Shown here piece after piece: positions 2,351 to 40,900 of a DNA stretch of 47,120 bases. The stretch's first letter is position 1. Each line of letters begins with the position of its first letter. The notes below the pieces were generated by a model, which was not told the origin of the DNA, did not search any database, and saw only the letters and a program-made list of their open reading frames with translations. Location: UHGV virus genome UHGV-0008871, one strand, 5' to 3'. A program made the position numbers and the translations under genes. Origin of the DNA: a virus.

Positions 2351-2351
2351 G

Positions 2352-3380: not shown

Positions 3381-3478
3381 CTTCCATTAATCCCTGAATT
3401 GTTGGTTAATACGCTTGGGGGTAAATGCGAGCAATAAAAAAGGAGCCTGTAGCTCCCTGATAATTTTGCTTTTCATGT

Positions 3479-3694: not shown

Positions 3695-3770
3695 TGAACA
3701 AGCCCCATGTCGGCAAGCATAAGCACACAGAATATGAAGCCCGCTGCCAGAAAAATGCATTCAGTGGTTG

Positions 3771-3962: not shown

Positions 3963-4123
3963 ACAGCCCCCCGTTTATTATTTATCTCCTCAGCCAGCCG
4001 CTGTGCTTTCAGGGGATTTCTGATAACAGAAAGGCCGGGAAATACCCAGCCTCGCTTTGTAACGGAGTAGACGAAAGTGATCGCACCTACCCGGATATTA
4101 TCGTGAGGATGCTTCATCGCCAT
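3935..4123 (-). CDS. Lambda exo-xis region protein, orf61-like (62 aa)
   Basis: [62 protein letters not shown]; recalled lambda orf61; overlaps the end of exo. Confidence 0.55.
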
Positions 4124-5576: not shown

Positions 5577-5581
5577 CCGTT

Positions 5582-5998
5582 TTATACCTCTGAATCAATA
5601 TCAACCTGGTGGTGAGCAATGGTTTCAACCATGTACCGGATGTGTTCTGCCATGCGCTCCTGAAACTCAACATCGTCATCAAACGCACGGGTAATGGCTT
5701 TTTTGCTGGCCCCGTGGCGTTGTAAATGATCGATGCAGAGTGATTCAAACAGGTGCTGGGGCAGACCTTTTTCCATGTCGTCTGCCAGTTCTGCCTCTTT
5801 CTCTTCACGGGCGATCTGCTGGTAGTGACGCGTCCAGCTCTGAGCCTCAAGACGATCCTGAATGTAATAAGCGTTCATGGCTGAACTCCTGAAATAGCTG
5901 TGAAAATATCGCCCGCGAAATGCCGGGCTGATTAGGAAAACAGGAAAGGAGGTTAGTGAATGCTTTTGCTTGATCTCAGTTTCAGTATTAATATCCAT
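5582..5998 (-). CDS. gam: Lambda Gam, RecBCD inhibitor (138 aa long form)
   Basis: [55 protein letters not shown]… matches recalled lambda Gam. Confidence 0.95.
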
Positions 5999-6096
5999 TT
6001 TTTATAAGCGTCGACGGCCTCACGAAACATCTTTTCATCGCCAATAAAAGTGGCGATAGTGAATTTAGTCTGGATAGCCATAAGTGTTTGGTCCAT
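5953..6096 (-). CDS. kil: Lambda Kil (host cell-division inhibitor, 47 aa)
   Basis: [47 protein letters not shown] inside the longer track ORF; start at the internal Met, overlapping cIII as in lambda. Confidence 0.85.
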
Positions 6097-6229
6097 TTTT
6101 TGGGACTCCTGGCTGATTAAGTATGTCGATAAGGCGTTTCCATCCGTCACGTAATTTACGGGTGATTCGTTCAAGTAAAGATTCGGAAGGGCAGCCAGCA
6201 ACAGGCCACCCTGCAATGGCATATTGCAT
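6065..6229 (-). CDS. cIII: Lambda cIII (FtsH/HflB inhibitor that stabilises cII), 54 aa
   Basis: Hand translation of the minus strand gives [54 protein letters not shown]; below the 60-aa track cutoff. Confidence 0.9.
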   Translation of the reverse strand: MQYAIAGWPVAGCPSESLLERITRKLRDGWKRLIDILNQPGVPKNGPNTYGYPD

Positions 6230-6301
6230 GGTGTGCTCCTTATTTATACATAACGAAAAACGCCTCGAGTGAAGCGTTATTGGTATGCGGTAACGCCGCG
6301 C

Positions 6302-6670
6302 TCAGGCGGCTTTGATAGTCATATCATCTGAATCAAATATTCCTGATGTATCGATATCGGTAATTCTTATTCCTTCGCTACCATCCATTGGAGGCCATCC
6401 TTCCTGACCATTTCCATCATTCCAGTCGAACTCACACACAACACCATATGCATTTAAGTCGCTTGAAATTGCTATAAGCAGAGCATGTTGCGCCAGCATG
6501 ATTAATACAGCATTTAATACAGAGCCGTGTTTATTGAGTCGGTATTCAGAGTCTGACCAGAAATTATTAATCTGGTGAAGTTTTTCCTCTGTCATTACGT
6601 CATGGTCGATTTCAATTTCTATTGATGCTTTCCAGTCGTAATCAATGATGTATTTTTTGATGTTTGACAT
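6302..6670 (-). CDS. ea10: Lambda Ea10-like early protein (122 aa)
   Basis: Size, position between cIII and sieB, and acidic C-terminus match lambda ea10 as I recall it. Confidence 0.6.
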   Translation of the reverse strand: MSNIKKYIIDYDWKASIEIEIDHDVMTEEKLHQINNFWSDSEYRLNKHGSVLNAVLIMLAQHALLIAISSDLNAYGVVCEFDWNDGNGQEGWPPMDGSEGIRITDIDTSGIFDSDDMTIKAA

Positions 6671-6692
6671 CTATTCATATCCTCACAGATAA

Positions 6693-6712
6693 AAAATCGC
6701 CCTCACATTGGA
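6693..6712 (-). terminator. Putative rho-independent terminator on the leftward transcript (hairpin gccctc/gagggc followed by a U-run)
   Basis: Minus-strand reading: gccctccaatgtgagggcgatttttt. Confidence 0.4.
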
Positions 6713-6930
6713 GGGCAAAGAAGATTTCCAATAATCAGAACAAGTCGGCTCCTGTTTAGTTACGAGCGACATTGCTCAGTGTATTCACTCGTTGGAATGA
6801 ATACACAGTGCAGTGTTTATTAGTATGCCTGTCTTTTAACCACATCAGGCTCGGTGGTTCTCGTGTACCCCTACAGCGAGAAATCGGATAAACTCTATTC
6901 ACCCCTACAGAGAGCAAAAGAGAAACGCCG

Positions 6931-7512
6931 ATGAACAACTCATGGTGGCAGGAACTAATGCATTTTTTCCTGCAAGGAATGACACTTAAACAGTTGATTC
7001 ATATGCTAATCATCCTAATCATATTGATTATTGTTATGCCTGTAAGCGTAAAAGAATGGATAAACCTGCATAATCCAGAAATCCTTCCTCATTACTGGAT
7101 GTATTACATCCTGTTGTTTTGCGTTAGCTATGTGCTTAACGGCGTTGTTAATTCCGCTTATCACGCTGTGACTGAAAGAATTGAGATATTCGCTGCTCAG
7201 AAGCGCAAATCTAAAGAAGAGAAATACGTGCAAGATTTGTTTGATTCGTTAACTCTTGGAGAAAGAGCGTATTTGGCATTCGCTGTAGCCGCTAATAACC
7301 AGCTAAAGACAGAAAAGGGAAGCCCTGAAGCAATCTCATTGCTCGAAAAAGGGCTTCTTATTCGGGTACCTTCTGCTACTGGATATCCTGAAATCGACCG
7401 TTTTGTTATCCCGGAACGCTATAGAAATGAGTGCTACATTAGGTTTGCTGGGAAGAAAGACAGTCTTATGGATGAACTTATCGCTCAGGATAAGCATGGC
7501 AAAAACAAGTAA
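6931..7512 (+). CDS. sieB: Superinfection exclusion protein B (193 aa, N-terminal membrane segment)
   Basis: Opposite orientation to the pL operon between ea10 and N, as lambda sieB; hydrophobic N-terminus (LIHMLIILIILIIVMPV). Confidence 0.7.
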   Translation: MNNSWWQELMHFFLQGMTLKQLIHMLIILIILIIVMPVSVKEWINLHNPEILPHYWMYYILLFCVSYVLNGVVNSAYHAVTERIEIFAAQKRKSKEEKYVQDLFDSLTLGERAYLAFAVAANNQLKTEKGSPEAISLLEKGLLIRVPSATGYPEIDRFVIPERYRNECYIRFAGKKDSLMDELIAQDKHGKNK

Positions 7513-7528
7513 TTAGCAAATTAATTTA

Positions 7529-7801
7529 TCATCTCGCCGTCAGTTGTTTTGATTTCCGGTAGCCTGCCGCGTAAATGGCTACGTTTGGCAGGCAAATACT
7601 TCCACTGCATTCATCTGCCTTCTTGCAGCGAAGGCTTCCGAGTGATGCTGCTTTGTCTGCTCTGACGCAACCAGAGAGCTTTAGCGCAATTTTTCGCGCC
7701 AGTCGCTGTTCTTGCATTGCCTGCTCACGTTGAGCCTGTCTGCGTGCTCTGCGGCGATTTCTGGCGTTATCGTCAGCCAGATATGTAATGACTACTGCCA
7801 T
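7529..7801 (-). CDS. N: N-type transcription antiterminator, P22 gp24-like (90 aa)
   Basis: Arginine-rich motif NARNRRRARRQAQRE and C-terminus VAIYAAGYRKSKQLTAR resemble recalled P22 gene 24 protein; first gene of the leftward operon. Confidence 0.75.
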   Translation of the reverse strand: MAVVITYLADDNARNRRRARRQAQREQAMQEQRLARKIALKLSGCVRADKAASLGSLRCKKADECSGSICLPNVAIYAAGYRKSKQLTAR

Positions 7802-7909
7802 GTTGACCTCCGATGATTGACTTTGGCGGTGACGCGCCGGGTGCTTATCTTCCGGTTGCCGTCGTGCAGCTGCACTTCACGTCACCCCAAAGCCAACTAC
7901 TCTTTGGTT

Positions 7910-7949
7910 CCCGCATTTCGGCGGGACAATCCCATCAATGTTAAAGAGC
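7910..7949 (-). promoter_or_regulatory. nutL candidate: boxA (gctctttaaca) and boxB hairpin (cccgccgaaatgcggg) on the leftward transcript
   Basis: The same boxA/boxB pair recurs downstream of cro at 9037-9079. Confidence 0.6.
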
Positions 7950-7954
7950 CTGCC

Positions 7955-8092
7955 AATCTGTTCCGTTTGGCTACCAGCGTCCTGCCGATGACTTAAATTT
8001 AAGATTTCTTTAACTATTGGTCAAGAGCGTTTTTGAAGAAAACTTAAATTTTGTTGCGAAGCTTAAGTTTTGCTTTGATTTTTAAAGGAAAG
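7955..8092. promoter_or_regulatory. OL/pL region: AT-rich tract with repeated TTAAGn/ACTTAA half-site-like motifs
   Basis: Repeats acttaaatttaaga, aaacttaaatttt, gcttaagtttt upstream of N; analogous motifs occur in the OR region. Confidence 0.5.
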
Positions 8093-8114
8093 AAAAAAAG
8101 GGGCGAATGCCCCT
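8090..8114 (-). terminator. Rho-independent terminator right after the repressor gene (hairpin aggggc-gaat-gcccct plus U-run on the minus strand)
   Basis: Read from the sequence; abuts the cI stop codon. Confidence 0.6.
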
Positions 8115-8764
8115 TATGGAAGGTTTGCTATTTTTGCATCGACAACTACACCGATGATTTTGCAGTTCCCGTTGATCTCAATCATCGGATATTGTGGGTT
8201 AAGTGGTTTTAGAAACCTTCTGCCAGCATCAATAACTAACTTCTTGAAAGTTGCCTCGTTTTCTCCTTCGAGCTTTGCCACTACCAGCTTCCCATTACGA
8301 GGTTCTACTTCAGGATCGACTAGTATTATCATCCCTTCCGGGATGCTAAGACCGGCTGGAGCCGTCATCGAATCACCCTTTACGTCCAGCCAAAACGAAT
8401 CTTCTGAACAATCTACGGTTGTATCGTACCAGTTATCTATTGCACGCTTATGATATGGCTCTACAGCTTCCATCCAACATCCTGCGCTTACCCAACTAAT
8501 TAGAGGATACGAACCTCTTGGATCATGCCTGCTGTGATAGGCAATGTTTGAAAGACTATCTTCTCCTTTCAACAAGTAATCAGGGGAGCACTGTAAAGCC
8601 TTGGCTAAAGCCAATAGGTTTTCGCCATTGGGCTCAGTTTCAGAACGCTCCCATTGGGAAATAGCAACATTAGACACGCCAACCATCTTGCCAAGGGCAG
8701 CCTGCCTAATCTTAAGTTCTTTTCTGCGAGCGCGAATACGCTCACCCATCAGTTGTGTATTCAT
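8114..8764 (-). CDS. cI: Prophage repressor, P22 C2-like (HTH plus LexA-like S24 self-cleavage domain), 216 aa
   Basis: MNTQLMGERIRARRKELKIRQAALGKMVGVSNVAISQWERSETEPNGENLLALAKALQCSPDYLL… plus GDSM…KL motifs; near-identical to recalled P22 c2. Confidence 0.9.
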   Translation of the reverse strand: MNTQLMGERIRARRKELKIRQAALGKMVGVSNVAISQWERSETEPNGENLLALAKALQCSPDYLLKGEDSLSNIAYHSRHDPRGSYPLISWVSAGCWMEAVEPYHKRAIDNWYDTTVDCSEDSFWLDVKGDSMTAPAGLSIPEGMIILVDPEVEPRNGKLVVAKLEGENEATFKKLVIDAGRRFLKPLNPQYPMIEINGNCKIIGVVVDAKIANLP

Positions 8765-8844
8765 AGTTAAGACATCTTAAATAAACTTGACTTAAGATTC
8801 CTTTGATAGATAATTTAAGTGTTCTTTAATTTCGGAGCGAGTCT
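8765..8844. promoter_or_regulatory. OR/PR/PRM divergent regulatory region between repressor and cro
   Basis: 80-bp AT-rich intergenic region with TTAAG-type operator half-sites. Confidence 0.6.
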
Positions 8845-9030
8845 ATGTACAAGAAAGATGTTATCGACCACTTCGGAACCCAGCGTGCGGTAGCTAAAGC
8901 GTTAGGCATTAGCGATGCAGCAGTCTCTCAGTGGAAGGAAGTCATCCCAGAGAAAGACGCCTATCGACTGGAAGTCGTTACAGCTGGCGCCCTGAAGTAT
9001 CAAGAAAGTGCTTATCGCAAAGCGGCATAA
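8845..9030 (+). CDS. cro: Cro repressor, P22-type (61 aa)
   Basis: MYKKDVIDHFGTQRAVAKALGISDAAVSQWKEVIPEKDAYRLEVVTAGALKYQESAYRKAA; HTH motif, divergent from cI. Confidence 0.9.
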   Translation: MYKKDVIDHFGTQRAVAKALGISDAAVSQWKEVIPEKDAYRLEVVTAGALKYQESAYRKAA

Positions 9031-9036
9031 GCAAAT

Positions 9037-9079
9037 TGCTCTTTAACAGTCATGGTCCTTATTCCCGCCGAAATGCGGG
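9037..9079 (+). promoter_or_regulatory. nutR: boxA (tgctctttaaca) and boxB hairpin (cccgccgaaatgcggg)
   Basis: Read from the sequence; same boxB hairpin as nutL. Confidence 0.65.
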
Positions 9080-9138
9080 AATACAACGCGCATCAGTTGG
9101 TGCGTATAACTTCTTATTTGTTAAGGAAATACTTACAT

Positions 9139-9417
9139 ATGCAACTTACAAGTACTCGCAAGAAAGCGAATGCAATCACAAGCAACATCCTGAATCGAAT
9201 TGCTGTACGTGGTCAGCGAAAGGTTGCTGATGCATTAGGGATTAATGAATCGCAAATTTCGCGATGGAAAGACAGCTTTATCCCAAAGATGGCCATGCTT
9301 CTGGCTGTGCTGGAGTGGGGTGTTGAAGACGAGGAATTAGCAAAGCTAGCAAAGAAAGTAGCCATGGTGCTGACAAAAGAAAAGCCTCAAGACTGCTGCA
9401 ACAGTTTTGAGGCCTGA
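9139..9417 (+). CDS. cII: cII-type transcription activator (P22 C1-like), 92 aa
   Basis: MQLTSTRKKANAITSNILNRIAVRGQRKVADALGINESQISRWK…; start at the internal Met of the track ORF. Confidence 0.8.
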   Translation: MQLTSTRKKANAITSNILNRIAVRGQRKVADALGINESQISRWKDSFIPKMAMLLAVLEWGVEDEELAKLAKKVAMVLTKEKPQDCCNSFEA

Positions 9418-9451
9418 TGTAGAAAGACTGGATCAATCCACAGGAGTCATT

Positions 9452-10351
9452 ATGACAAATACAGCAAAAATACTCAACTTCGGCAGAGGTAACTTTACCG
9501 GACAGGAGCGTAATGTGGCAGATCTCGATGATGGTTACGCCAGACTATCAAATATGCTGCTTGAGGCTTATTCAGGCGCAGATCTGACCAAGCGACAGTT
9601 TAAAGTGCTGCTTGCCATTCTGCGTAAAACCTATGGGTGGAATAAACCAATGGACAGAATCACCGATTCTCAACTTAGCGAGATTACAAAGTTACCTGTC
9701 AAACGGTGCAATGAAGCCAAGTTAGAACTCGTCAGAATGAATATTATCAAGCAGCAAGGCGGCATGTTTGGACCAAATAAAAACATCTCAGAATGGTGCA
9801 TCCCTCAAAACGAGGGAAAATCCCCTAAAACGAGGGATAAAACATCCCTCAAATTGGGGGATTGCTATCCCTCAAAACAGGGGGACACAAAAGACACTAT
9901 TACAAAAGAAAAAAGAAAAGATTATTCGTCAGAGAATTCTGGCGAATCCTCTGACCAGCCAGAAAACGACCTTTCTGTGGTGAAACCGGATGCTGCAATT
10001 CAGAGCGGCAGCAAGTGGGGGACAGCAGAAGACCTGACCGCCGCAGAGTGGATGTTTGACATGGTGAAGACTATCGCACCATCAGCCAGAAAACCGAATT
10101 TTGCTGGGTGGGCTAACGATATCCGCCTGATGCGTGAACGTGACGGACGTAACCACCGCGATATGTGTGTGCTGTTCCGCTGGGCATGCCAGGACAACTT
10201 CTGGTCCGGTAACGTGCTGAGCCCGGCCAAACTCCGCGATAAGTGGACCCAACTCGAAATCAACCGTAACAAGCAACAGGCAGGCGTGACAGCCAGCAAA
10301 CCAAAACTCGACCTGACAAACACAGACTGGATTTACGGGGTGGATCTATGA
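9452..10351 (+). CDS. O: Lambda O replication initiator (299 aa)
   Basis: MTNTAKILNFGRGNF… with RBS aggag upstream; the iteron array lies inside the ORF. Confidence 0.9.
   Translation: MTNTAKILNFGRGNFTGQERNVADLDDGYARLSNMLLEAYSGADLTKRQFKVLLAILRKTYGWNKPMDRITDSQLSEITKLPVKRCNEAKLELVRMNIIKQQGGMFGPNKNISEWCIPQNEGKSPKTRDKTSLKLGDCYPSKQGDTKDTITKEKRKDYSSENSGESSDQPENDLSVVKPDAAIQSGSKWGTAEDLTAAEWMFDMVKTIAPSARKPNFAGWANDIRLMRERDGRNHRDMCVLFRWACQDNFWSGNVLSPAKLRDKWTQLEINRNKQQAGVTASKPKLDLTNTDWIYGVDL
9799..9925. repeat. Lambda-type origin: four ~19-bp iterons (tccctcaaaacgaggga-like) plus flanking AT-rich tract, inside O
   Basis: Four iteron copies read directly, followed by acacaaaagacactattacaaaagaaaaaagaaaag. 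Confidence 0.85.
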
Positions 10352-11049
10352 AAAACATCGCCGCACAGATGGTTAACTTTGACCGTGAGCAGATGCGTCG
10401 GATCGCCAACAACATGCCGGAACAGTACGACGAAAAGCCGCAGGTACAGCAGGTAGCGCAGATCATCAACGGTGTGTTCAGCCAGTTACTGGCAACTTTC
10501 CCGGCGAGCCTGGCTAACCGTGACCAGAACGAAGTGAACGAAATCCGTCGCCAGTGGGTTCTGGCTTTTCGGGAAAACGGGATCACCACGATGGAACAGG
10601 TTAACGCAGGAATGCGCGTAGCCCGTCGGCAGAATCGACCATTTCTGCCATCACCCGGGCAGTTTGTTGCATGGTGCCGGGAAGAAGCATCCGTTACCGC
10701 CGGACTGCCAAACGTCAGCGAGCTGGTTGATATGGTTTACGAGTATTGCCGGAAGCGAGGCCTGTATCCGGATGCGGAGTCTTATCCGTGGAAATCAAAC
10801 GCGCACTACTGGCTGGTTACCAACCTGTATCAGAACATGCGAGCCAATGCGCTTACTGATGCGGAATTACGCCGTAAGGCCGCAGATGAGCTTGTCCATA
10901 TGACTGCGAGAATTAACCGTGGTGAGGCGATCCCTGAACCAGTAAAACAACTTCCTGTCATGGGCGGTAGACCTCTAAATCGTGCACAGGCTCTGGCGAA
11001 GATCGCAGAAATCAAAGCTAAGTTCGGACTGAAAGGAGCAAGTGTATGA
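10348..11049 (+). CDS. P: Lambda P (DnaB helicase loader), 233 aa
   Basis: MKNIAAQMVNFDREQMRRIANNMPEQYDEKPQVQQVAQIINGVFSQLLATFPASLANRDQNEVNEIRRQW… matches recalled lambda P. Confidence 0.95.
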   Translation: MKNIAAQMVNFDREQMRRIANNMPEQYDEKPQVQQVAQIINGVFSQLLATFPASLANRDQNEVNEIRRQWVLAFRENGITTMEQVNAGMRVARRQNRPFLPSPGQFVAWCREEASVTAGLPNVSELVDMVYEYCRKRGLYPDAESYPWKSNAHYWLVTNLYQNMRANALTDAELRRKAADELVHMTARINRGEAIPEPVKQLPVMGGRPLNRAQALAKIAEIKAKFGLKGASV

Positions 11050-11336
11050 CGGGCAAAGAGGCAATTATTCATTACCTGGGGACGCATAATAGCTTCTGTG
11101 CGCCGGACGTTGCCGCGCTAACAGGCGCAACAGTAACCAGCATAAATCAGGCCGCGGCTAAAATGGCACGGGCAGGTCTTCTGGTTATCGAAGGTAAGGT
11201 CTGGCGAACGGTGTATTACCGGTTTGCTACCAGGGAAGAACGGGAAGGAAAGATGAGCACGAACCTGATTTTTAAGGAGTGTCGCCAGAGTGCCGCGATG
11301 AAACGGGTATTGGCGGTATATGGAGTTAAAAGATGA
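11046..11336 (+). CDS. ren: Lambda Ren (96 aa)
   Basis: MTGKEAIIHYLGTHNSFCAPDVAALTGATVTSINQAAAKMARAGLLVIEGKVWRTVYYRFATREE… matches recalled lambda Ren. Confidence 0.9.
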   Translation: MTGKEAIIHYLGTHNSFCAPDVAALTGATVTSINQAAAKMARAGLLVIEGKVWRTVYYRFATREEREGKMSTNLIFKECRQSAAMKRVLAVYGVKR

Positions 11337-15502: not shown

Positions 15503-15577
15503 GGGTCAGTCGTATAAAGGTCATTACGGAAGGCTGTTAACCTTCTTATCGTGGTTCGAGTCCACGCTGTCCCGCCA
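15503..15577 (+). tRNA. Phage-encoded tRNA, anticodon GUU (Asn) by manual fold; slightly non-canonical
   Basis: Hand-folded cloverleaf: acceptor gggtcag/ctgtccc (one mismatch), anticodon stem gaagg/ccttc, loop ctGTTaa, T-arm cgtgg-ttcgagt-ccacg, CCA encoded; D-stem only 3 bp. Confidence 0.5.
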
Positions 15578-15582
15578 AACAT

Positions 15583-15658
15583 GCTGTTTTAGCTCCAATG
15601 GTAGAGCGGTCGCCTTGTAAGCGAATGGGTAGCGGTTCAAGTCCGTTAAACAGCACCA
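15583..15658 (+). tRNA. Phage-encoded tRNA, anticodon UGU (Thr) by manual fold
   Basis: Perfect 7-bp acceptor gctgttt/aaacagc, D-stem gctc/gagc, anticodon loop ctTGTaa, T-loop ttcaagt, CCA encoded. Confidence 0.65.
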
Positions 15659-17923: not shown

Positions 17924-18664
17924 ATGGCAAAACCGGACTGGGGAGCACTGCAACACCAGTTCCTCGCCGAGCATGCCAAAACAGGAATATCCCCGAAAGA
18001 CTGGTGCGCAGCGCAGGGACTGAATTATTCATCTGCGAAACGCTATATCAAAGTAACGACTTACGGTGCGAATTCGCAAAAAAAAAGTGCGAACAAATCT
18101 GCGAATTCGCAGAAGGAGAAAGGCGGGGTCAGTAAAAACGGGGAGGTGAAAAAAAACCAGCCCGACACAGGCGCCCACTCAAAATCTCCAGAAACGAAAC
18201 CGATACGCGGATCGCGCACTGCTCCGCCGACGAACGCCTTCCAGCCTGGCAACCAGAACGCATTAAAGCATGGTGGCTATGGCCGCCGGATGCTGCTCTC
18301 TGACGCCATCACCGAAGATGCCCAGATGCTCACGCTCGACGATGAGCTTTTCTGGCTGCGAGCGGCGAGCCTGACAGCGGCAGAGAATATCGGGCGCTGG
18401 CAGACAGAGCTGGAGACAGCCGCCAGCGAGCAGGCCAAAGATCTGCACGACCTCATCTCTCAGGCGCAGAAAGCCATGCATCGCAACACTGCGCGCATTG
18501 AGTCGCTGGAGTACACCAAGGCGGCGATTATCAAGCAGCGCGTTGATGCCGCTTACCGCGAAGCCGCGACCGAAAAGGTTGAGCTCGAAATTGATGTACT
18601 GAAAGACGGCGACAAGGATAACGCGATCGTCGTGCATAACTCGCTGCCAATACCGGGAAGATAA
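17924..18664 (+). CDS. Terminase small subunit (putative), 246 aa
   Basis: Immediately upstream of the large terminase; N-terminal HTH-like region and GNQNALKHGGY motif. Confidence 0.6.
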   Translation: MAKPDWGALQHQFLAEHAKTGISPKDWCAAQGLNYSSAKRYIKVTTYGANSQKKSANKSANSQKEKGGVSKNGEVKKNQPDTGAHSKSPETKPIRGSRTAPPTNAFQPGNQNALKHGGYGRRMLLSDAITEDAQMLTLDDELFWLRAASLTAAENIGRWQTELETAASEQAKDLHDLISQAQKAMHRNTARIESLEYTKAAIIKQRVDAAYREAATEKVELEIDVLKDGDKDNAIVVHNSLPIPGR

Positions 18665-18667
18665 ATC

Positions 18668-19999
18668 ATGGCCGACATTTACCTACCCACGCTACACAAC
18701 GGGCAGTTAACGGTCTGGTCTGATTCCTGGGATCACCAGTTGAATGCGGTTCGCTGTGGTCGACGCTGGGGGAAAACCTTCATGCTGTCGAGCGCCGCGG
18801 TGACCTACGCAACGTCGCAGTTTCGGCGCCCGGGCATGGACATCGAGCTGGGCGGCCGGGTCGGTATCTTCACTGCCGAGTATCGCCAGTACCAGGAGAT
18901 CTACGACAAGCTGGAAGAAATCCTGTTGCCGCTGAAAAAGAGCTTCAGCCGGCAGGAAAAGCGACTGCTGCTGAAGAACGGCGGGAAGATTGACTTCTGG
19001 GTCACCAACGACAACAAACTGGCCGGTCGTGGTCGTGAATATGAAATTATCCTGATCGATGAGGCGGCGTTTACCAAGTCGCCTGAAATGCTGAAGGAAA
19101 TCTGGCCGAAGTCGATTAAGCCGACGCTGCTGACGACAAAGGGCCGGGCTTACGTATTCTCAACGCCTGACGGTGTGGACGAAGAAAATTTCTTCTATGC
19201 CATCTGCCATAACAAAGACCTCGGCTTCCATGAGCATCACGCGCCGACGTCATCAAACCCCTTCGTTCCTCCCGAGGAGCTGGAGAAAGAGCGACAGAAC
19301 AACGATCCTCGCGTTTTCCGGCAGGAGTTCTTGGCCGAGTTCGTCGACTGGTCCGCTGCGTCGCTGTTCGACGTCCGCAAATGGTTCGAGGGTGAAAACC
19401 AGGATCAGCCTGTCGATTACCCTGAGATGTGCCAGGCCGTTTTCGCTGTCATGGATACCGCCGTTAAGGGCGGTACTGAGCACGACGGCACGGCGGTGGT
19501 TTACTACGCCGTCGACACCCGGCCCGGAATTCAGCGCCTGACCATTCTTGACTGGGATGTGGTGCAGATCGACGGCGCGCTGCTGGAAGAGTGGATTCCG
19601 TCCGTTTTCACCAGGCTGAATGAGCTATCCGGCCAGTGCGTCGCTGTAAATGGCAGCCTCGGCGTTTTCATTGAAGACGCCAGTATGGGCAGCATCCTCC
19701 TGCAGAAAGGCGAGAGCCTGGGATGGCCGGTCAACAAAATTGAATCCGCCCTGACCAGCAAAGGGAAGGACGAGCGCGCCATTATGGCCTCTGGGTATCA
19801 CTACCGCGGGCTGGCGAAAATATCCCGATACGCCTACGAGAAGACGGCAGTCTTCAAGGGCGAAACAGCAAACCATCTGCATAAGCAGGTATCACGATTC
19901 CACCTTGCCGATAAGAACGCGCACAAGCGCGCCGACGATTTGCTGGATGATTACACCTACGGGCTGATCATCGCGTTCGGTAGCGGCGACGCACTCTAG
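18668..19999 (+). CDS. Terminase large subunit (ATPase plus nuclease), 443 aa
   Basis: Walker A GRRWGKT and Walker B ILIDEA; size and position. Confidence 0.85.
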   Translation: MADIYLPTLHNGQLTVWSDSWDHQLNAVRCGRRWGKTFMLSSAAVTYATSQFRRPGMDIELGGRVGIFTAEYRQYQEIYDKLEEILLPLKKSFSRQEKRLLLKNGGKIDFWVTNDNKLAGRGREYEIILIDEAAFTKSPEMLKEIWPKSIKPTLLTTKGRAYVFSTPDGVDEENFFYAICHNKDLGFHEHHAPTSSNPFVPPEELEKERQNNDPRVFRQEFLAEFVDWSAASLFDVRKWFEGENQDQPVDYPEMCQAVFAVMDTAVKGGTEHDGTAVVYYAVDTRPGIQRLTILDWDVVQIDGALLEEWIPSVFTRLNELSGQCVAVNGSLGVFIEDASMGSILLQKGESLGWPVNKIESALTSKGKDERAIMASGYHYRGLAKISRYAYEKTAVFKGETANHLHKQVSRFHLADKNAHKRADDLLDDYTYGLIIAFGSGDAL

Positions 20000-20010: not shown

Positions 20011-21426
20011 ATGAACGAAGATGATATCGCAATCGGCAGTTGCTCGCCGGAGCTGATCACGCTCCTGGACAGCGATGACATTCAGCCGGGTATGTCGGCT
20101 GGCTATCAGACCTGCAAAACGATTTACCTCTTCCACCCGTTGGGCGGGAAAATGGTAGATCGCCCGATCAAGATGGCGATGAACGAGTCGCGCACGGTTC
20201 ACATTTCGCAGGCGTATGGCATTGAGCAGCGTCTCCGCGATGCATTTGAGCGGGAGTGGAAAGCACTGGGCGCCGATAAGCACATCGCTAATGCGGCGCG
20301 CATCTCTCGCATTTACGGTGTTTCGGCGATCGCAATGCTGGTTGATAACCAGGAGCCGTCCTCTGCGGTGGACTACCGCACGCTGTATAAGCACAACGTG
20401 ACATTCAACATTCTCGACCCGCTGAACACTGCCGGAAGCATCGTCCTGAACCAGGATCCGAACGCGCAGGACTTTCAGAAGGTCGACGGGATCAGAGTGG
20501 CGGGCAAGCCGTATCACAAATCCCGCTGTGTTGTGCAACAGAACGAGGACCCGATTTATCTGGCCTATAACTCTGCTGCCTTTGGCTTTACCGGTCGCAG
20601 CGTTTACCAGCGCGCTCTGTTCCCGCTGAAATCCTTCATCCAGACCATGCGCACCGATGACATGGTTTCCGTGAAGGGTGGCTTGCTGGTAACGAAGATT
20701 CAGGGACCTAGCTCAGTCGTCAACAACATGATGCAAAAGCTCAGCGGCATCAAACGAATGATGCTGAAGCGAGGGAAGACAGGCGAAGTCCTGCAGATCG
20801 GCGCAAATGACAGCATCGAATCCATCGACCTGAGCAACCTGGAAAAGCCGCTCGACTCCTCCCGGAATCACATTCTGGAGAATATCGCTGCGGCAGCTGA
20901 CATGCCGGCTATCATTCTGAACTCGGAAACATTCGCCCAGGGCTTCGGCGAGGGGACGGAAGACGCTCGATCTGTTGCAGTCTACATCGACAACATCCGC
21001 GAGTGGCTTGAGCCGCTGTATGACTATTTCATCCGTATTTGCCAGTATCGCGCCTGGAGCATTGAGTTTTTCAATTCTCTGCGTGCTGACTTCCCGGAGC
21101 TTAAAAACACGTACAGCCTGTATTTCTCCTCATGGATTAACAACTTCGAATATCGCTGGCCGTCATCCCTGAAAGAGCCGGAAAGCGAAAAAGTGAAGGT
21201 CGACGAAATCCGCTTTAAGGCCATCGTCAGCATGCTGGAAGTCCTTCTCCCGCAGGTCAACACGGATGATGAGAACCGCGCGCTTCTTATCGAGTGGGCG
21301 CAGACCAACGCGAACGCTAACGAAAGCCTGTTCCCGCAGCGACTTGATCTCGATATCGACTCGTTAAAGGCTAACCGGCCTGAACAGCCACGGGATGAAG
21401 AGCCCGGCGGCGGGATGATGCTATGA
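20011..21426 (+). CDS. Portal protein (putative), 471 aa
   Basis: Gene following the large terminase, size typical of portal proteins; acidic C-terminus. Confidence 0.65.
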   Translation: MNEDDIAIGSCSPELITLLDSDDIQPGMSAGYQTCKTIYLFHPLGGKMVDRPIKMAMNESRTVHISQAYGIEQRLRDAFEREWKALGADKHIANAARISRIYGVSAIAMLVDNQEPSSAVDYRTLYKHNVTFNILDPLNTAGSIVLNQDPNAQDFQKVDGIRVAGKPYHKSRCVVQQNEDPIYLAYNSAAFGFTGRSVYQRALFPLKSFIQTMRTDDMVSVKGGLLVTKIQGPSSVVNNMMQKLSGIKRMMLKRGKTGEVLQIGANDSIESIDLSNLEKPLDSSRNHILENIAAAADMPAIILNSETFAQGFGEGTEDARSVAVYIDNIREWLEPLYDYFIRICQYRAWSIEFFNSLRADFPELKNTYSLYFSSWINNFEYRWPSSLKEPESEKVKVDEIRFKAIVSMLEVLLPQVNTDDENRALLIEWAQTNANANESLFPQRLDLDIDSLKANRPEQPRDEEPGGGMML

Positions 21427-22244
21427 AGACTTTCACGCGCACCGTACGCGAGGCGGTGAAGTTCTTTCTGCGCAATGGCTACACCTCGAGGCAGGAGCTG
21501 GAGCAATGGCAGGCCATTATCCGGCAGGCGGGCGAAAGCGAAACCGATGACGACTACATGAGCATGGTGTCGGATCGGTTGCGTAAGACCTATGACCTGC
21601 AGGTGAGCAAGGCTGGAGCGCTGGAGCGCCACAAGGGGCTTTCGCGCTTCACGCTGAACTACATGGAGCCGAAGTTACGCAGCGAGCTGGATCGCCGCAT
21701 CCTGGCCAGCGCTGACCTGATAAAGCTGAATCGCAAGAAAGCCATCGACACTACTCTGTCGCGGTTTAGCGGATGGGCCAGCAGCATTCCCTCAGCAGAC
21801 AGCATTGCGCTGACCGGCATTCAGGGAACGATGCGGGAGACGGCGGCGCACATTCAGAAGGCCGCCGAGAAGGTGGACTATGAAGCGCGCCGCGTGATGA
21901 TTGACCAGAGCCATAAGCTGATCGCCAATATCGACAACATCATCGCGACGGGCAACAACGCGATTGCTGCCGAGTGGCATAGCCACTGGCGCCAGCCAGG
22001 GTACGACTACCGGGAAGATCACAAGGAGAGGGACAAGCTGATCTATCTCATCCGCGGGAACTGGGCGCAGAAAAATGGCTATGTCAAAGCTGGCCCCGCC
22101 GGCTATCTCGACGAAATCACACAGCCTGGCGAAGAGGTTTTCTGTCGGTGCTACGTCACCTATCTGTACAACCTCCGCAGCATTCCCGAGGACATGCTGA
22201 CCCAGAAGGGCCGCAAGTTCCTGGAGTCCATGAAAGCAGCATAG
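21423..22244 (+). CDS. Head morphogenesis / minor head protein (putative MuF/SPP1 gp7-like), 273 aa
   Basis: Position after portal with translational coupling; called by synteny. Confidence 0.5.
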   Translation: MKTFTRTVREAVKFFLRNGYTSRQELEQWQAIIRQAGESETDDDYMSMVSDRLRKTYDLQVSKAGALERHKGLSRFTLNYMEPKLRSELDRRILASADLIKLNRKKAIDTTLSRFSGWASSIPSADSIALTGIQGTMRETAAHIQKAAEKVDYEARRVMIDQSHKLIANIDNIIATGNNAIAAEWHSHWRQPGYDYREDHKERDKLIYLIRGNWAQKNGYVKAGPAGYLDEITQPGEEVFCRCYVTYLYNLRSIPEDMLTQKGRKFLESMKAA

Positions 22245-22256
22245 GAGCATTAAAAC

Positions 22257-23870
22257 GTGGCTATTTTTGGCAGCGGGATAATGTTCCGTCAGGGGAAGTT
22301 CGTCTTCCTGATCCAGCGCTCGGATGATGGCACATGGTGCCAGCCGGGCGGGACGATAGAGCCGGGAGAGTTAGCCATAGACGCCGCACGGCGCGAGGTG
22401 CTGGAGGAAACAGGCTATCAGTACGATGGCCCGCTGACGCCGCACAGCGTACATGGTGACTACCTGACCTACCGCGCCGACGTGCCGGAGCAATTCGAAG
22501 CGAAGATAAACGACGAATCGCTGGCCGCCGGATGGTTCCATATTGAAGATCTGCCAAAGCCGCTTCATCAGCCATTCGCTGAAATGCTGGCGCAGCAGGC
22601 GCTCAACGAAACCGACGTGGCCGCGCTCATCGCTGACGGAACGCTCAGCAGCCCGCAATATTTTTACAACATGTGGATGTTCGCCATCCGGGTGACCGGA
22701 ACAGGGGTTACCTGGCGATCTGCAGATCAGGAGATGACGTTCCGTAACCCGGACGACTATCTCACCCCTGAATTTCTCCAGCGGGTAGCTGGCGTACCAC
22801 TTATCTGGCTTCACCCCGAAAAAAGAACACTTGATAGCGACGAGTTCTCAAAGCGCGTTATTGGCACCCTGACAAATGCCTGGGTTGCCGATAAGGGCGA
22901 AGTGTGGGCCGTTGCGCGTGTGTACGACGCCGAAGCTGCTGAAATTATGGCAACAAGGCAATTAAGCACCTCGCCAACTGTGAAGTTCTCAGAGGTTGCT
23001 CAATCAATCATTGTCGACGGTCAGCCTCTACTGGTGGAGCCATCCCCCGAGCTGCTCGACCACGTTGCAATTTGTGAACAGGGCGTGTGGGACAAGCTCC
23101 TTGCCCCTACCGGTGTTAAATCTGATTCCATTCCTGAAGAGGCTGAAAAGATGGACGAGGAAAAAATCGTAGCGCTGATTAATAAGGCGATCGATGCGCG
23201 TTTGGCTAAGGCCGACGAAGAGAAGGAAGCGAAAGCCAAGGCTGACGCCGAAGAGGCCGCCAAGAAAGAAAAGGCTGACGCAGAAGACAAAGAAGCGGAA
23301 GAGGCGAAAGCTAAAGCCGACGCGGAAGAGAAAGCCGCGAAGGAAAAAGCTGATGCTGAAGCCAAAGAAAAGGCGGATGCCGAAGAGGCTGAGAAAATGG
23401 CAAAAGAAAAAGCCGACTCTCAAATCCTCCAGGAAATTGCTGAGCTTCGCTCCCGCATTCCTACCGAACTGAGCGACGAAGAGCGCAACGAAGTTGCAGA
23501 AGCGCAGGTGAAAGCCGATAGCGTCTTCTCCAGCTTTGGCAAACGCGCCCCGATCCCGCTGTCCGGTGAAAAACCGATGGCGTATCGCCGCCGTCTGATG
23601 ATTCAACTGCAGGAGCATTCTCCGGACTACAAAGCCGTCGATCTCTCTGCCATCGCTGATTCTCAACTGCTGAGCACTGCCGAAAAGCATATCTACGCTG
23701 ATGCGCAGAAGGCGGCCAGCCTGTCAGTTGGTCCCGGTATGCTGCGCGAGATTAAGCGCGCCGATGCAACCGGTCGCCAGATCAGCACCTTTGAAGGCGA
23801 TCCCGCCGTCACCTGGGCGCCGTTCCAGTCTGGCAAGCGTCAGGTCACCAGTTTTAACAACCAGGCTTAA
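22257..23870 (+). CDS. Head scaffold-like protein with N-terminal Nudix hydrolase domain and internal Lys/Ala/Glu/Asp-rich repeat region (537 aa)
   Basis: Canonical Nudix box [23 protein letters not shown] (GX5EX7REUXEEXGU) at residues ~30-53; KADAEE-type repeats at residues ~315-380; position between head morphogenesis and capsid genes. Confidence 0.6.
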
Positions 23871-23885: not shown

Positions 23886-24746
23886 ATGGCTAATTTATCT
23901 CTTAACCCGATGGCGACCACGAATGCCGCTGGTTCCTTCGGTGTGCAGTCTGATGGCTTCATTCAGGGCGTTGCTCTGGATGATCCGGCAAATCGCTTTA
24001 ACCTGGCGTCCGGCACTGTCGCCGCCACCGAAACCAAACCGCTGTGGGGTGGCCTGCCGGTTGCCGAGTTGCTGCCCGGCGTGAACTCCAGTCCTCGCGG
24101 GTCGACTATTCGTCGCGCTGTGTCACTGGCTGAACTCGAAGGCTTCACCGTCTTCAACCAGGCCCACAACGGCCTTACCACTCCGCAATCACCGGTTCCG
24201 CTGTATGCGTCCGGCATGAGCGTTTCATTCTACCGCCTTGGATCCAACATGCGCGTTCCGCTGAAAGCTTCAGCGCAGGTGGTAGCGCTCGGAACCGCTG
24301 GCGCATCGGTGAAAACGCCGCTGGCGTGGGACTTCGTCAATAACCAGGTGACCACCGCAGCCGCGGCGGCTTTTGCCGGTGCTGACATTGACACGACCGC
24401 TGTTACCTACTCGAACGGCGTGGCCACCGCCACCACTGCCTCTGCACATGGTCTGACTGCAGGCCAGTACGTGAAGATCAGCGGCGTAGCTCCGACTGCC
24501 TATAACGGCACCGTCGTTGTGCTGAGCGTACCGAGTACGACAACCTTCACCTATGCGCCTGCCAGCGCGCCGGGCGGCTCCACGACCACGCAGGGCACTA
24601 TCGGCGCTGTTGCTCAGGCAGACATCACCCTGCCAGTGAAAGTCATCTCCATCGAGAGTGGGAACTCTAAAACTGTCAGCTATGACAGCGCTACGGGCTT
24701 CCTTACCTGGAACAACACCGACAGCTGCGCGCTGGTCTTACTTTAA
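23886..24746 (+). CDS. Putative head structural/decoration protein with Ser/Thr/Ala-rich beta domain (286 aa)
   Basis: Between scaffold-like and capsid genes; contains a ~55-aa domain also found in the sheath-like protein (28129-29523). Confidence 0.45.
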   Translation: MANLSLNPMATTNAAGSFGVQSDGFIQGVALDDPANRFNLASGTVAATETKPLWGGLPVAELLPGVNSSPRGSTIRRAVSLAELEGFTVFNQAHNGLTTPQSPVPLYASGMSVSFYRLGSNMRVPLKASAQVVALGTAGASVKTPLAWDFVNNQVTTAAAAAFAGADIDTTAVTYSNGVATATTASAHGLTAGQYVKISGVAPTAYNGTVVVLSVPSTTTFTYAPASAPGGSTTTQGTIGAVAQADITLPVKVISIESGNSKTVSYDSATGFLTWNNTDSCALVLL

Positions 24747-24759: not shown

Positions 24760-25791
24760 ATGGCTGCAATTACCCCCAGCTACACCATCGTCAACCCGTC
24801 GTATATTGCGCCGGAGTTGATCATTGGTTACCAGCAGGCGTCCGGTGCGTTCGAAACCATCGCCAGCGGTAACCCGCAGGTCCGCCTTGGCGTAGGCGAC
24901 CAGTACGTTTATATGCGCCGCCTGGATATTCGTACCCAGGTAACCTCCAGCCAGTCCGGCAACGCCAACCAGCTGCCGAGCGTGGCGCTCGAGGCGCGCA
25001 TGATCTCCACTCCAACCTACCTGTTCCGCTGCCGTGGTATCTACGATCACCACGACACCGCGGCGGCCGGTAACTGGAACGTGGCTCTGCCAGAAGCTCA
25101 GCGTCTCGGCATGCGTCAGGGCATCTTCCAGCAGTTGCGTTCTGCGCTGCTGTACGGCATGAACCCGGCAGGCGGCGAAGGTCTGCTGAACACCGCAGGC
25201 GCGACCACCGAAACCCTGCCGCCGGACAGCAACAGCAACACCACTGTGCTGACCTACGACCATGGACAGATGGCTGTCTATCTGCTGGGCCATGTACAGG
25301 CCGCGCTGACCCGCACCATGCAACTGGGTCGCCAGCAGCGTGTTGTTATCCTCGGTCCGCAGCGAGTGCTGGGCGCGATGGAGATTCAGCAGATCGTTCA
25401 GCTGACATCTTATCAGCGTCCTGGCGGCGGTACTGATACCGTCGGCGGCACCGTGAAAGAGGTTCTCCGTGGCGCGAATGTTCAGGTTGACTGGGTGTAC
25501 GACGACACGCTGATCGGCGCCGGTGCCGGAGGTACTGACGCGGTGGTTATCACCATCCCGGAAGTGGAAGTGCCGATGGTTAACTCCACCGTGAACACCA
25601 ACGAATTCGCCAAACTGAGCCCGTCTCTTGCGGCGAACGCCCTGATGTTCACCGACATGGCTGCACCGATGGAAATCCCGACGCCAATCCCCGGGGGCGC
25701 TATCGACGTGCTGTCAGAAATGCGCTCTACGGCTGGCTGGGCAGTCCGTCCGGAAGCTATCACCATCCTGTCGATGAAATACAGCGACTAA
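24760..25791 (+). CDS. Major capsid protein (putative), 343 aa
   Basis: Size, position and a strong terminator immediately downstream; no sequence-level recognition. Confidence 0.55.
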   Translation: MAAITPSYTIVNPSYIAPELIIGYQQASGAFETIASGNPQVRLGVGDQYVYMRRLDIRTQVTSSQSGNANQLPSVALEARMISTPTYLFRCRGIYDHHDTAAAGNWNVALPEAQRLGMRQGIFQQLRSALLYGMNPAGGEGLLNTAGATTETLPPDSNSNTTVLTYDHGQMAVYLLGHVQAALTRTMQLGRQQRVVILGPQRVLGAMEIQQIVQLTSYQRPGGGTDTVGGTVKEVLRGANVQVDWVYDDTLIGAGAGGTDAVVITIPEVEVPMVNSTVNTNEFAKLSPSLAANALMFTDMAAPMEIPTPIPGGAIDVLSEMRSTAGWAVRPEAITILSMKYSD

Positions 25792-37915: not shown

Positions 37916-37964
37916 TTAAAAGGCCGCGCTTGCGGTTTTTTTATTGCCTAATCCCGGAGGATAC

Positions 37965-40900
37965 ATGGCACTAACCCTTTTGGCTACAAACAACGCAGAA
38001 AGCACGCTGGCTTCTGCTATCAGCGCAACCGACACGTCGCTGATCGTTAGCGCTGGAACTGGTGCCGAGTTCCCTGATGCTGTGGCAGGCGAGAGTTACT
38101 TTAAGCTCACTCTCACCGATGCCGCCACCGGCTCACAGGTTGAGATCGTGAACGTGACAGCTAAGGCCGGAGACATCTTCACGATTGAACGTGCGCAAGA
38201 AGGAACGCTGGCGCGTGCGTGGGCGGCCAACGACATGGTTGCCAACATGATGACGGCGGATACGCTGAACATTATCGCTCAATATGCCCAGCAGGCAGCT
38301 GCATCAGCAGATCAGGCAATTGAGGCTGCTAATAACGCCTCTGAATACGCAAAGAACAAATACACATTCTATAAGACTGCCAGCGATCCTGATGGCACCA
38401 TTGCAGGGTTGGCAGCAACTACTGACGGCCAGTCGTTCTGGGTAGCTCAGGGGCCAGATGCGCTTTCTGCTGCATGGCAGTATCAAAACAATGCTGGCGT
38501 GGCCGTGTTGCAGGCCAAGCAGCCAGGGACAGCGGCCATAACAGGGACAATCCGCGAGTTTCCGACGCTGGCTGCGGCGCAGGCAGACGCAGCTGCGGGT
38601 AATATACCGGTGGGATCAACTGCTTATTATCGCAGCTCAGATGACAATAATCTTTCAATTGAGGTTATCAATACCGCTGGTACGTTGGTAGCAACCGGAA
38701 GAAAAATTCCAGCGTATTCCGCTTTGCGTAGAGGCAACATTTTATTCGACGCATTTAATGAATATTCCTCAAGCCTTTTAACATTCGCTAACTGGGATTG
38801 GTATAAAGGCGCTACGCCAACATTTTCTACTACTGATGTTAATTTGCCGCTTCCAACACCTGTTATTCAAGCTTCTGGTGTAACATCGTTTGATAAATAT
38901 TACGATGTGTCAAAATTACAGGTAAAACCAGGAGACACTTTAGCTTTCTCTGTTTTGGTATGGTTCGAGAACGCTGGAGGCAAGTTACAGATTTATTGGC
39001 TTGATTCAGCAGGAGTAACCATCACTACAGGGGAGGCCTCTCCACTGGTTGCTGGTATATCTTCGCCGGTTGTGGTCATTGCTGTGCCATCTGGCGCATC
39101 ATCCATACGAATTCGGGTGCAAAACACTGTGTCAGGGGCGTTCAAAATCGGTGCCTATGCCGCAGCTATTGGTGATGTTACTCCTGAATTCACAAGGTCT
39201 TTCCCTTCAAAAGCGTACCAGGAGGCATTGGGTACCCCTGATAACCTCGTGTACGATCCTTTTGGCGAGATGCTTTCCGTTCGCCCTAAGCAAGGACTCC
39301 CAGCAGGCGTGGTTGACGCCATGAGTTACGCAGGAACATTGATTCAGAACAGCGCAAATTCACCATGGGGTAAGACCGGGATCCAAAACACGTCAGGAGT
39401 TGGTGCTGATCGTATTATTTCTCTCAGTTCGATGGGGGTTAAGCCGGGAGACACAATCACTGTCCGTCTGGCTGCATGGTTCGCGTCAACGGGTGGCACG
39501 TTTCAGGTTTTCTGTCGTAATGCATCCGGAGTACTTTCTTCGGCAACTATTGCCGCATCAGCATCCGGCTTTAATGATGGAAGTACCACGCTGACAATAC
39601 CAGCATCAACGACATACCTTACGCTTCGCGCATCAGGGGCTATGGTCAAGGAGCTGGTTGCCATAGGTGTAGCTTTCGGACGATCTCGCCCTGAGTTTAT
39701 TTACGGTAGCCTTCCAGCAGAGTATTCAGGATACCAGCGCCAGCAGATTAACCTGTGGCCTGATCCCTGGTATCGCCGCTACGAGTGCGGGGAAACGTGT
39801 ATTGATGGTTGGGGTCCTGCTCAAGTAGCAGGGGTTTCACTACCAGCATATGTTGCGGATTATTCTGGCAGCCCGTTTCTTAGGAAAAAATCTCTGATTA
39901 TCCCAGTAGGTGGTGGTCAGACGGATATTAACATTTCAGCAAAGCGGCTTGGACTGCGTGCTGGAGATTCGCTGACAGTAGCGCTGGGTGTGGTATCGTC
40001 TCAGGCAATCAACGTGGCAGCATATTTCCGGACGGCTAGCGGGACTGTTATTAGTGACAGTTCGTCTCAGTTGTTCCAGTTCCCAACCCAGCAATATCAG
40101 ACTCTGGTTCGCACAATAGCTATCACCCAGACTATTGTTGATACGGCTGGATATCTGCAAATCCGCCTTATGAATGGGCAGACTGTTGGCGCTGCAGGTG
40201 TTTATGTTGTTGCCAGGGGGCTCTTTGTTGGGAATGGCTCTCCTGTACTGAGTGATGATACGTACCGACAGGATGTCGATTACACAACTTCCAGAGCATT
40301 CACGTTAAATCAGGATTCACTCAGAGAGACACATAAGCGCCTGATGAACAGGCGGCTTTCTCAGTCAGCAACACTGGTAACAGCGCACATTGGCGATAGC
40401 TGGACTCACCTGTGGAACCGATGGAGCGGAATTTTTGCCGGAAAAATGCAGGCTGACTATGGCAGTGCAGGTATCGGCTATATCGGATTTGGCTATCCGT
40501 CTGAGGCGGGTTTCGGGCAGTATAACGGCAATATACTTGGTCAGATAACTTTGACCAAAACAGGAACATGGACGCCGACATATGCGGCAGCACAGAGCGC
40601 AGATATTTGTAGCGTCTCGTCTTCTGATACCACCGCTACTTTCAGGGCGAACGGTATACCGGCAAATGCATCGTCAGTCCGCCTTTTTGCTAAACCTCAG
40701 GGGAGTGTTAAATACAGCACAGATGGTGGAGTTAACTGGACAACTATCGACCTGAGCACGTTCACTGACCTTGCGGTTGTCAGCCTCACGGTACCGGCAA
40801 CAGCTTTCAATATCTGGTTCAGTCCGGTATCAGGAACCGTTGAACTGTACGGTCTGGATGTGCAGACCGCGACAGATGGTGTCCGGTCTCACAAGCTGGG

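Follow-up and report, generated by a model that had tools for sequence, protein, structure and literature searches.

The virus genome UHGV-0008871, a stretch of 47,120 nucleotides (nt) that we call the window, carries in its head-assembly operon one gene (22257..23870, + strand) for a protein of 537 amino acids (aa) in which, as sequence and predicted structure very strongly indicate, an intact Nudix hydrolase domain, a protease of the gp21/assemblin fold and a scaffold-like tail are joined in one polypeptide. The explanation that we favour, with some reservation, is that an active Nudix enzyme is carried into the procapsid by a protease-scaffold, is probably released there and is possibly injected with the DNA. 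The initial annotation of this DNA had proposed that a Nudix domain is covalently linked to a head-assembly protein, and this link held, since both lie in a single open reading frame (ORF) that no frameshift or separate start divides. It had described the remainder of the protein as a scaffold or prohead-core protein with a KADAEE repeat; the last ~240 residues are indeed scaffold-like and the repeat is real, but aa 118-290 are predicted to form a protease.

Domain architecture of the 537-residue protein

The features of the gene are the following.

22243..22247, + strand: Shine-Dalgarno sequence AGGAG, 9 nt before the GTG start codon, read from the sequence
22257..23870, + strand: whole gene, encoding Nudix, prohead protease, coiled coil and C-terminal scaffold domain as one predicted polyprotein of 537 aa
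22257..22601, + strand: Nudix hydrolase domain, aa 1-115 (PF00293, Foldseek and family profile)
22350..22418, + strand: Nudix box, aa 32-54
22608..23126, + strand: predicted prohead maturation protease domain (DUF2213, gp21/assemblin-like fold), aa 118-290
22812-22814, 22971-22973 and 23061-23063, + strand: candidate catalytic residues His186, Ser239 and His269 (from invariance, order and spacing)
23139..23142, + strand: candidate internal ribosome-binding site GAGG, 8 nt before the ATG at 23151
23151..23870, + strand: putative nested in-frame scaffold gene, Met299-Ala537, 239 aa
23157..23450, + strand: charged coiled coil with KADAEE-type repeats, aa 301-398 (helices 301-341 and 369-398 in the AlphaFold2 model)
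23475..23867, + strand: conserved C-terminal domain, aa 407-537, presumed capsid-binding scaffold part (predicted local distance difference test score, pLDDT, 86-98)

The gene starts with GTG and is uninterrupted, as the ORF listing and the sequence contain neither a frameshift nor an internal stop. Its Shine-Dalgarno sequence overlaps the stop codon (22242-22244) of the preceding MuF-like gene, and the start context is the same in phage Chronis and in Yersinia phages. PHROG 6216, a family of unknown function, covers the protein end to end (E=1.8e-245), and homologues of 537-541 aa are 96-99% identical to it. That the fusion is an assembly or frameshift artefact or a chance motif was ruled out, and we give this reading practically no credence: the same 537-541 aa frame recurs in thousands of independent assemblies and in isolated phages, and the end-to-end PHROG match and the Pfam match (E=3e-16) contradict it as well. 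An AlphaFold2 model of the full-length protein, built from 91 diverse homologues, reached a mean pLDDT of 87.7 and laid out the Nudix domain at aa 1-112, a beta-rich part at aa 118-290, helices at aa 301-341 and 369-398, and the C-terminal domain at aa 407-537.

The initial annotation had read a textbook Nudix box at the N-terminus and proposed a PF00293 search there. This search matched aa 9-112 with E=3.1e-16 and 60.1 bits against a gathering cut-off of 21.1. The N-terminus reads [54 protein letters not shown], and both peptides that had been quoted are present, [18 protein letters not shown] standing directly before the box [23 protein letters not shown]. The consensus GX5EX7REUXEEXGU is fitted by G32, E38, R46, E47, E50, E51 and G53, with Tyr rather than Ile, Leu or Val at the last position. 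The region flagged at the outset (22257-22650, aa 1-131) comprises the Nudix domain and the beginning of the following domain.

The model is confident over aa 1-115 (pLDDT 90-98), and a Foldseek comparison of the full-length predicted structure with the PDB returned Nudix structures with probability 1.00 and target-relative TM-scores of 0.6-0.74, in keeping with a Nudix alpha/beta/alpha fold. The top matches were Ap4A hydrolase, NUDX1, MutT and NudC; this comparison yielded Nudix chains only and no subfamily resolution. Searched against PDB sequences, the family profile ranked E. coli NudG best (CTP pyrophosphohydrolase; 2rrk, 4.8e-16), then several MutT proteins, with Ap4A hydrolases, NudI and Dcp2 close behind and not separated from them. 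By sequence the domain therefore appears nearest to the MutT/NudG-type NTP pyrophosphohydrolases. None of the NCBIfam equivalog cut-offs for ADP-ribose pyrophosphatase, NudC, RppH, CoA pyrophosphatase or MutT was reached (e.g. 25 against 103 bits).

To survey relatives, aa 1-300 were searched against 1.84 billion cluster representatives, one per 50%-identity cluster, which gave 488 proteins at E<=1e-30. Of these 488, the top 150 all cover both the Nudix and the protease domain. Among 150 cluster representatives, the box residues G32, R46, E47, E50 and E51 are kept in 149, E38 in 147 and G53 in 141; E87 is likewise kept in 149/150, and the box residues are invariant in the family alignment (A1). 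Because every catalytic residue is invariant, the Nudix domain is probably an active enzyme. A scan of IMG/VR with a protease-only alignment as query, which shows box retention and not the share of relatives without Nudix, found the box in 77 of the 80 closest viral loci (60-100% identical); the three exceptions are an E51K change (L038), a domain disrupted upstream (L042) and a gene cut by the contig end. In the E51K contig the box reads REVQEK, not REVLEE, in the same gene (L038, 5650..7269). This allele is likely inactive and could act as a natural control.

The domain that follows points to a prohead maturation protease rather than a scaffold. Pfam DUF2213 (PF09979) matched aa 159-276 marginally, with 25.2 bits against a threshold of 22, and two PHROG 'head maturation protease' families, 530 and 2229, matched with E=1.7e-9 and 4.2e-8. 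Modelled separately, the domain shares its fold with T4 gp21 and the herpesvirus assemblins; sequence searches of the PDB with the single protein and with the family profile found no protease match, and fold comparison of the predicted structure alone gave one. No change at H186 or S237-T238-S239 occurs in 150 divergent relatives, and D268-H269 are almost as constant. His186, Ser239 and His269 are separated by 53 and 30 residues, an order and spacing that we take to be like those of gp21 (H85/S140/D165) and the human cytomegalovirus protease (H63/S132/H157). At the junction with the Nudix domain, pLDDT remains at 96-97 and the linker residues E118, A122, G128 and S132-P133 are conserved. A gp21-type cleavage site at L/M-x-E118 of this junction was considered and dropped, as the same motif opens the Nudix-less protein of Escherichia phage Rac-SA53 and may therefore be conserved for structural reasons.

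The last ~240 residues appear to be a scaffold module that can stand apart from the rest of the protein. The charged KADAEE-type repeat occupies aa ~315-390 and corresponds to a DNA tandem repeat of period 75 at 23229-23369 (Tandem Repeats Finder); the model has a low-confidence stretch (aa 336-362) between the two long helices. A TolA homology of the coiled coil was rejected, the NCBIfam match being sub-threshold and compositional, and such a compositional match accounts for the label 'TolA protein' on the Rac-SA53 homologue. The C-terminal domain has near-invariant residues (Q417, D421, G428, G437, E438, Y443, R446, S455, D482, A483, G506 and G514) and is kept in the Nudix-less Rac-SA53 homologue.

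The scaffold part (aa 299-537) is probably also translated alone from Met299, in the manner of lambda C/Nu3, judging from the nucleotide and protein sequences. Most of 129 representatives have a Met 14-22 residues past a GVWDK motif, with a peak at +17, in a linker that is otherwise variable. Shine-Dalgarno-like motifs before the internal Met are present in five divergent loci, and the Yersinia, Pantoea, Shewanella and Rac-SA53 homologues have GAGG, AGGAG or AGGTGA at the equivalent position. The record of phage BcepB1A annotates an in-frame nested gene, gp25 'scaffold protein', within gp26. In lambda C/Nu3 and Mu I/Z the scaffold gene is nested in the protease gene, and the common C-terminus brings the protease into the procapsid. 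A gene of its own encodes the part matching PHROG 6216 positions 336-538 in a metagenomic island (L007), where it directly follows a Nudix-protease gene. This island, at 1340..11281 of an ENA metagenome scaffold, holds an AlpA-like regulator, a primase/polymerase-like 849-aa protein, a rubrerythrin-Nudix-protease gene (P0208), the separate scaffold gene and an integrase; no capsid or portal gene was recognised in the stretch, and it looks like a phage satellite with its own protease and scaffold.

Carriers, spread and inheritance of the Nudix domain

Comparison of homologues indicates that the Nudix domain is an add-on module of the protease-scaffold. The Rac-SA53 homologue, a protein of 430 aa in the same head module, starts at the equivalent of aa 115 of the 537-aa protein and from there on is 36% identical as far as the C-terminus, and DUF2213 proteins without Nudix also occur in PB1-like phages and in Bcep781 (gp14). 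Within one type of head module the Nudix domain also appears to have changed carrier. The portal protein of Burkholderia phage Bcep781 (gp17; L004 3282..5369) has a related Nudix domain (35-40% identity) at its C-terminus, aa 576-679; Bcep1, Bcep43 and BcepNY3 have a portal-Nudix protein by matching annotation, and the portal/MuF fusion of Arthrobacter phage Sonali includes a Nudix-like segment.

Longer relatives carry domains upstream of Nudix, namely an ADP-ribosyltransferase (P0190, P0192), a PBECR1 nuclease (P0215) or a ParB-like nuclease (P0232), as well as DUF5710 (P0128) and a rubrerythrin/EncFtn-like, encapsulated-ferritin-like domain (P0208); in P0226 a GNAT domain is inserted into the Nudix domain. 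The pairing of ADP-ribosyltransferase and Nudix could represent coupled NAD/ADP-ribose chemistry. Fragments of ribonucleotide reductase were also seen among the extra domains on the Nudix-protease core, in relatives including P0195. Iyer et al. 2017 (PMC5512222) assigned ADP-ribosyltransferase, PBECR1 and ParB-type domains to 'polyvalent proteins' that are predicted to be packaged and injected, some of which have an assemblin-like peptidase at the C-terminus, and in Pfam DUF2213 is listed as a partner of NUDIX, of LPD3 (a polyvalent-protein domain) and of DUF1073 portals (PMC8770471). The polyvalent architecture of several effector domains and a peptidase is found among the relatives, and the window protein has one candidate effector domain. 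Taken together, the Nudix-less homologue starting from aa 115, the portal-Nudix fusion and the upstream effector domains suggest that Nudix is cargo of the head interior.

The Nudix-protease fusion is old and common. It occurs in at least 150 protein clusters at 50% identity and in thousands of enterobacterial prophages, in which it is labelled only "NUDIX hydrolase". The family ranges over phages of Klebsiella, E. coli, Raoultella, Yersinia and Pantoea and, more distantly, of Shewanella and Burkholderia. Mean pairwise identity among relatives is 55% for the protease, 46% for Nudix, 39% for the C-terminal domain and 32% for the coiled coil. Since the pairwise identities of the Nudix and protease domains co-vary (rho=0.27, exceeding all 200 label permutations), the two domains appear to have been largely inherited together.

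Proposed fate of the Nudix domain and rival explanations

We propose that the scaffold tail would co-assemble the full-length protein with the capsid protein and thus place the protease and the tethered Nudix domain inside the procapsid, the scaffold being made separately from Met299 as well. The activated protease would then digest the scaffold and itself, most likely leaving a compact Nudix domain of ~13 kDa free in the head. More speculatively, this domain could accompany the DNA into the next host and, as infection begins, cleave a nucleoside-diphosphate-X substrate. Encapsidation of the Nudix domain we consider likely from the carriers that it keeps, and delivery with an early function is a speculative extension to which we give less than an even chance. 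A bolder version, in which the protease-released and injected Nudix is a first-strike counter-defence enzyme that destroys a pyrophosphate-linked immune nucleotide before phage gene expression, appears improbable. Candidate substrates for it are the ADP-ribose-derived Thoeris signals, the ITP/dITP of deaminase defences and chain-terminating NTP analogues; if true, such a strategy would be common to hundreds of phage lineages, and the carrier would sometimes bear an ADP-ribosyltransferase or a nuclease as well.

Several points weigh against the proposal of a packaged and released enzyme. Fold and sequence give no substrate class beyond a small MutT-like Nudix, and the catalytic residues of the protease are assigned from invariance, order and spacing. 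The protease might merely degrade the Nudix domain. A portal-tethered Nudix stays in the capsid unless cleaved, which suits a role inside the capsid as well as injection. Ralstonia phage RS-CA1 encodes a similar, closely related Nudix as a free-standing gene, which means that the domain is found outside head proteins too, and a dedicated capsid clade of Nudix as an exclusive claim was rejected on this ground. The literature search found no paper characterising a Nudix-protease or Nudix-portal fusion and no report of virion proteomics, activity or expression for the 537-aa protein or its close relatives.

The RS-CA1 relative also fits an explanation in which the Nudix works late in the cytoplasm of the producing cell, where it would sanitise or reshape pools of (d)NTPs, NAD/ADP-ribose or alarmones or would decap RNA, as T4 NudE.1 is reported to do, the fusion serving only late, stoichiometric co-expression and encapsidation being incidental. 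Free-standing phage Nudix enzymes are cytoplasmic, T4 NudE.1 hydrolyses NAD and NAD-RNA in vitro (10.1101/2024.04.04.588121), and the nearest proteins by sequence are the housekeeping MutT and NudG. We nevertheless judge this explanation unlikely: co-expression alone gives no reason for a covalent link to persist in more than 150 divergent clusters, the Nudix has, besides the protease, at least two more fusion partners among the head proteins incorporated in the capsid (portal and portal/MuF), and it accompanies ADP-ribosyltransferase, nuclease and ParB domains that are read as packaged effectors in PMC5512222.

A regulatory role, with the Nudix as a pro-domain or nucleotide-gated switch that holds the protease inactive until assembly, would make sense of the conserved linker and of the continuous pLDDT at the junction, which suggest a rigid two-domain unit. 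Prohead proteases must stay inactive before assembly, a requirement that this role would answer. A steric pro-domain, however, would not require that the metal-binding and catalytic Nudix residues all be invariant; protease control evidently works without Nudix in Rac-SA53, in Bcep781 gp14 and in the PB1-like DUF2213 proteins, and in Bcep781 the Nudix sits on the portal, apart from the protease. We therefore hold regulation to be quite unlikely. Less likely still is that the Nudix acts solely within the procapsid or capsid, its substrates being, for instance, nucleotides or modifications linked to them that arrive with the DNA, and is not delivered to a host. The portal-fused Nudix of Bcep781 gp17 would be fixed at the vertex of DNA entry and exit, and the ferritin-like domain of P0208, of the encapsulin-cargo type, hints at chemistry within the shell, but we know of no pyrophosphate-linked substrate inside capsids, and the targets suggested by the co-fused ADP-ribosyltransferase, nuclease and ParB domains lie in the host.

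Should packaging and delivery of the Nudix prove true, every new host of a very common prophage family would receive a nucleotide hydrolase that is ready to act. The few proteins known to be injected from phage heads would then be joined by a further enzyme class, and there would be a concrete candidate to set against nucleotide-based defences. Whatever the function, the annotation of these genes is to be corrected to prohead protease and scaffold of their phages, and a prohead protease whose N-terminus takes varied natural cargo is of interest for targeting proteins into capsids.

Genomic setting and known systems

The genes around the 537-aa gene form a head module with the following members.

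18668..19999, + strand: large terminase subunit (Pfam Terminase_6N, PHROG 2)
20011..21426, + strand: portal protein, DUF1073/Phage_portal_3 type (Pfam PF06381 E=2.2e-20, PHROG 146 E=3.6e-69)
21423..22244, + strand: MuF/SPP1 gp7-like head morphogenesis protein (PHROG 324 E=6.1e-29)
23886..24746: 286-aa ORF (PHROG 6268, function unknown)
24760..25791, + strand: major capsid protein, DUF2184/PF09950 type (PHROG 6671 E=5e-183; PHROG 264, major head protein; the PF09950 match is weak)

The order is large terminase, portal, MuF-like gene, 537-aa gene, 286-aa ORF and major capsid protein, and it is identical in phage Chronis, the Yersinia vB_YenM phages, Pantoea phage PdC23 and Shewanella phage vB_Sb_QDWS. 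The gene had been placed between head morphogenesis and capsid genes; its position in the module is as described, but the 286-aa ORF separates it from the capsid gene. This ORF resembles, at aa ~165-242, a repeat domain of large virion structural and tail-fibre proteins, its homologue in Pantoea phage PdC23 is annotated 'endosialidase', and its product may be a head decoration or fibre protein. In the RefSeq entry of a near-identical E. coli prophage, the portal gene product (WP_001001273.1) bears the name 'anti-CBASS protein Acb1 family protein', a label that looks wrong for a 471-aa portal within a head operon.

The window is a lambdoid prophage within an enterobacterial chromosome. The integrase (43030..44226) adjoins tRNA-Arg(cct) (44352..44426), which lies at the prophage end and probably marks the integration site; the host flank holds genes for a formate/nitrite-transporter-family protein and MlaA. 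Two further tRNA genes, tRNA-Asn(gtt) and tRNA-Thr(tgt), lie at 15503..15658 between a Q-antiterminator-like ORF and the holin. In the small-terminase position before the large terminase, a 246-aa ORF (17924..18664) is intact in the window, and its counterpart in E. coli ETEC4091 is annotated as a frameshifted pseudogene. A late protein of 1136 aa (37944..41354) has a C-terminal GDSL/SGNH esterase domain and is probably a tail spike that deacetylates surface polysaccharide.

Close copies of the 537-aa gene are already on record. Klebsiella phage vB_Kpn_Chronis gp4 ('putative NUDIX hydrolase') is 99.4% and the 'NUDIX hydrolase' WP_021518661.1 99.8-99.9% identical to it, and 49 of 5,426 complete E. 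coli genomes contain a match. Database names for the family are 'NUDIX hydrolase', 'TolA protein', 'glycosyl transferase' and 'hypothetical'; of these, 'glycosyl transferase' (Yersinia vB_YenM phages, L003 5001..6632) and 'TolA protein' (Rac-SA53, L012 5007..6299) are misannotations of homologues. The suggestion that the fusion was uncharacterised stands in that no characterising paper was found, but the architecture itself had been catalogued, as NUDIX with DUF2213 in PMC8770471, as PHROG 6216 and as WP_021518661.1.

The closest described object is the gp26/gp25 pair of BcepB1A. Like the window protein, gp26 (head maturation protease) combines a Nudix domain (aa 46-118), DUF2213 (E=1.6e-35) and a C-terminal scaffold, it lies in a portal - MuF - protease - capsid head module, and the two Nudix domains are 48% identical. 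Outside the Nudix domain, however, BLASTP detected no similarity between the two proteins, and gp26 falls within the canonical DUF2213 branch; the window protein, in contrast, reaches no more than 25 bits with that Pfam model. No text was found that characterises the Nudix domain of gp26. The lambda gpC/Nu3 and Mu gpI/gpZ systems resemble the window gene in having protease and scaffold in one frame, the nested start of the window gene being a putative one, and differ from it in that they have no N-terminal enzymatic cargo.

T4 Alt and the T4 internal proteins are packaged in the capsid and injected, having been built into the prohead core and processed by a gp21-type protease. Their capsid targeting depends on a short sequence and their delivery is proven, whereas the window Nudix is covalently fused to the protease and its delivery is proposed; moreover, Alt (summarised in PMC5512222) is an ADP-ribosyltransferase. 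Together with these T4 proteins, the polyvalent or packaged-effector protein (PMC5512222) is the closest concept, with effectors fused to virion-associated domains such as MuF, portal and assemblin-like peptidase, and relatives of the window protein carry such effectors. The window protein itself differs in having a single effector domain and a peptidase that is followed by the scaffold and thus is not C-terminal, and in PMC5512222 NUDIX is mentioned solely next to, or fused to, the InPase domain. Among phage enzymes that have been studied, the free-standing T4 NudE.1 comes closest; in vitro it cleaves NAD, NAD-RNA, ADP-ribose, Ap3A and FAD (10.1101/2024.04.04.588121); NudE.1 and other free-standing phage Nudix proteins share the intact box with the window protein but are stand-alone and cytoplasmic, without a link to head assembly. 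Bcep781 gp17, finally, resembles the window protein in bearing a related Nudix (35-40%) on a protein that is built into the capsid, in the same type of head module, with the portal in place of the protease as the carrier.

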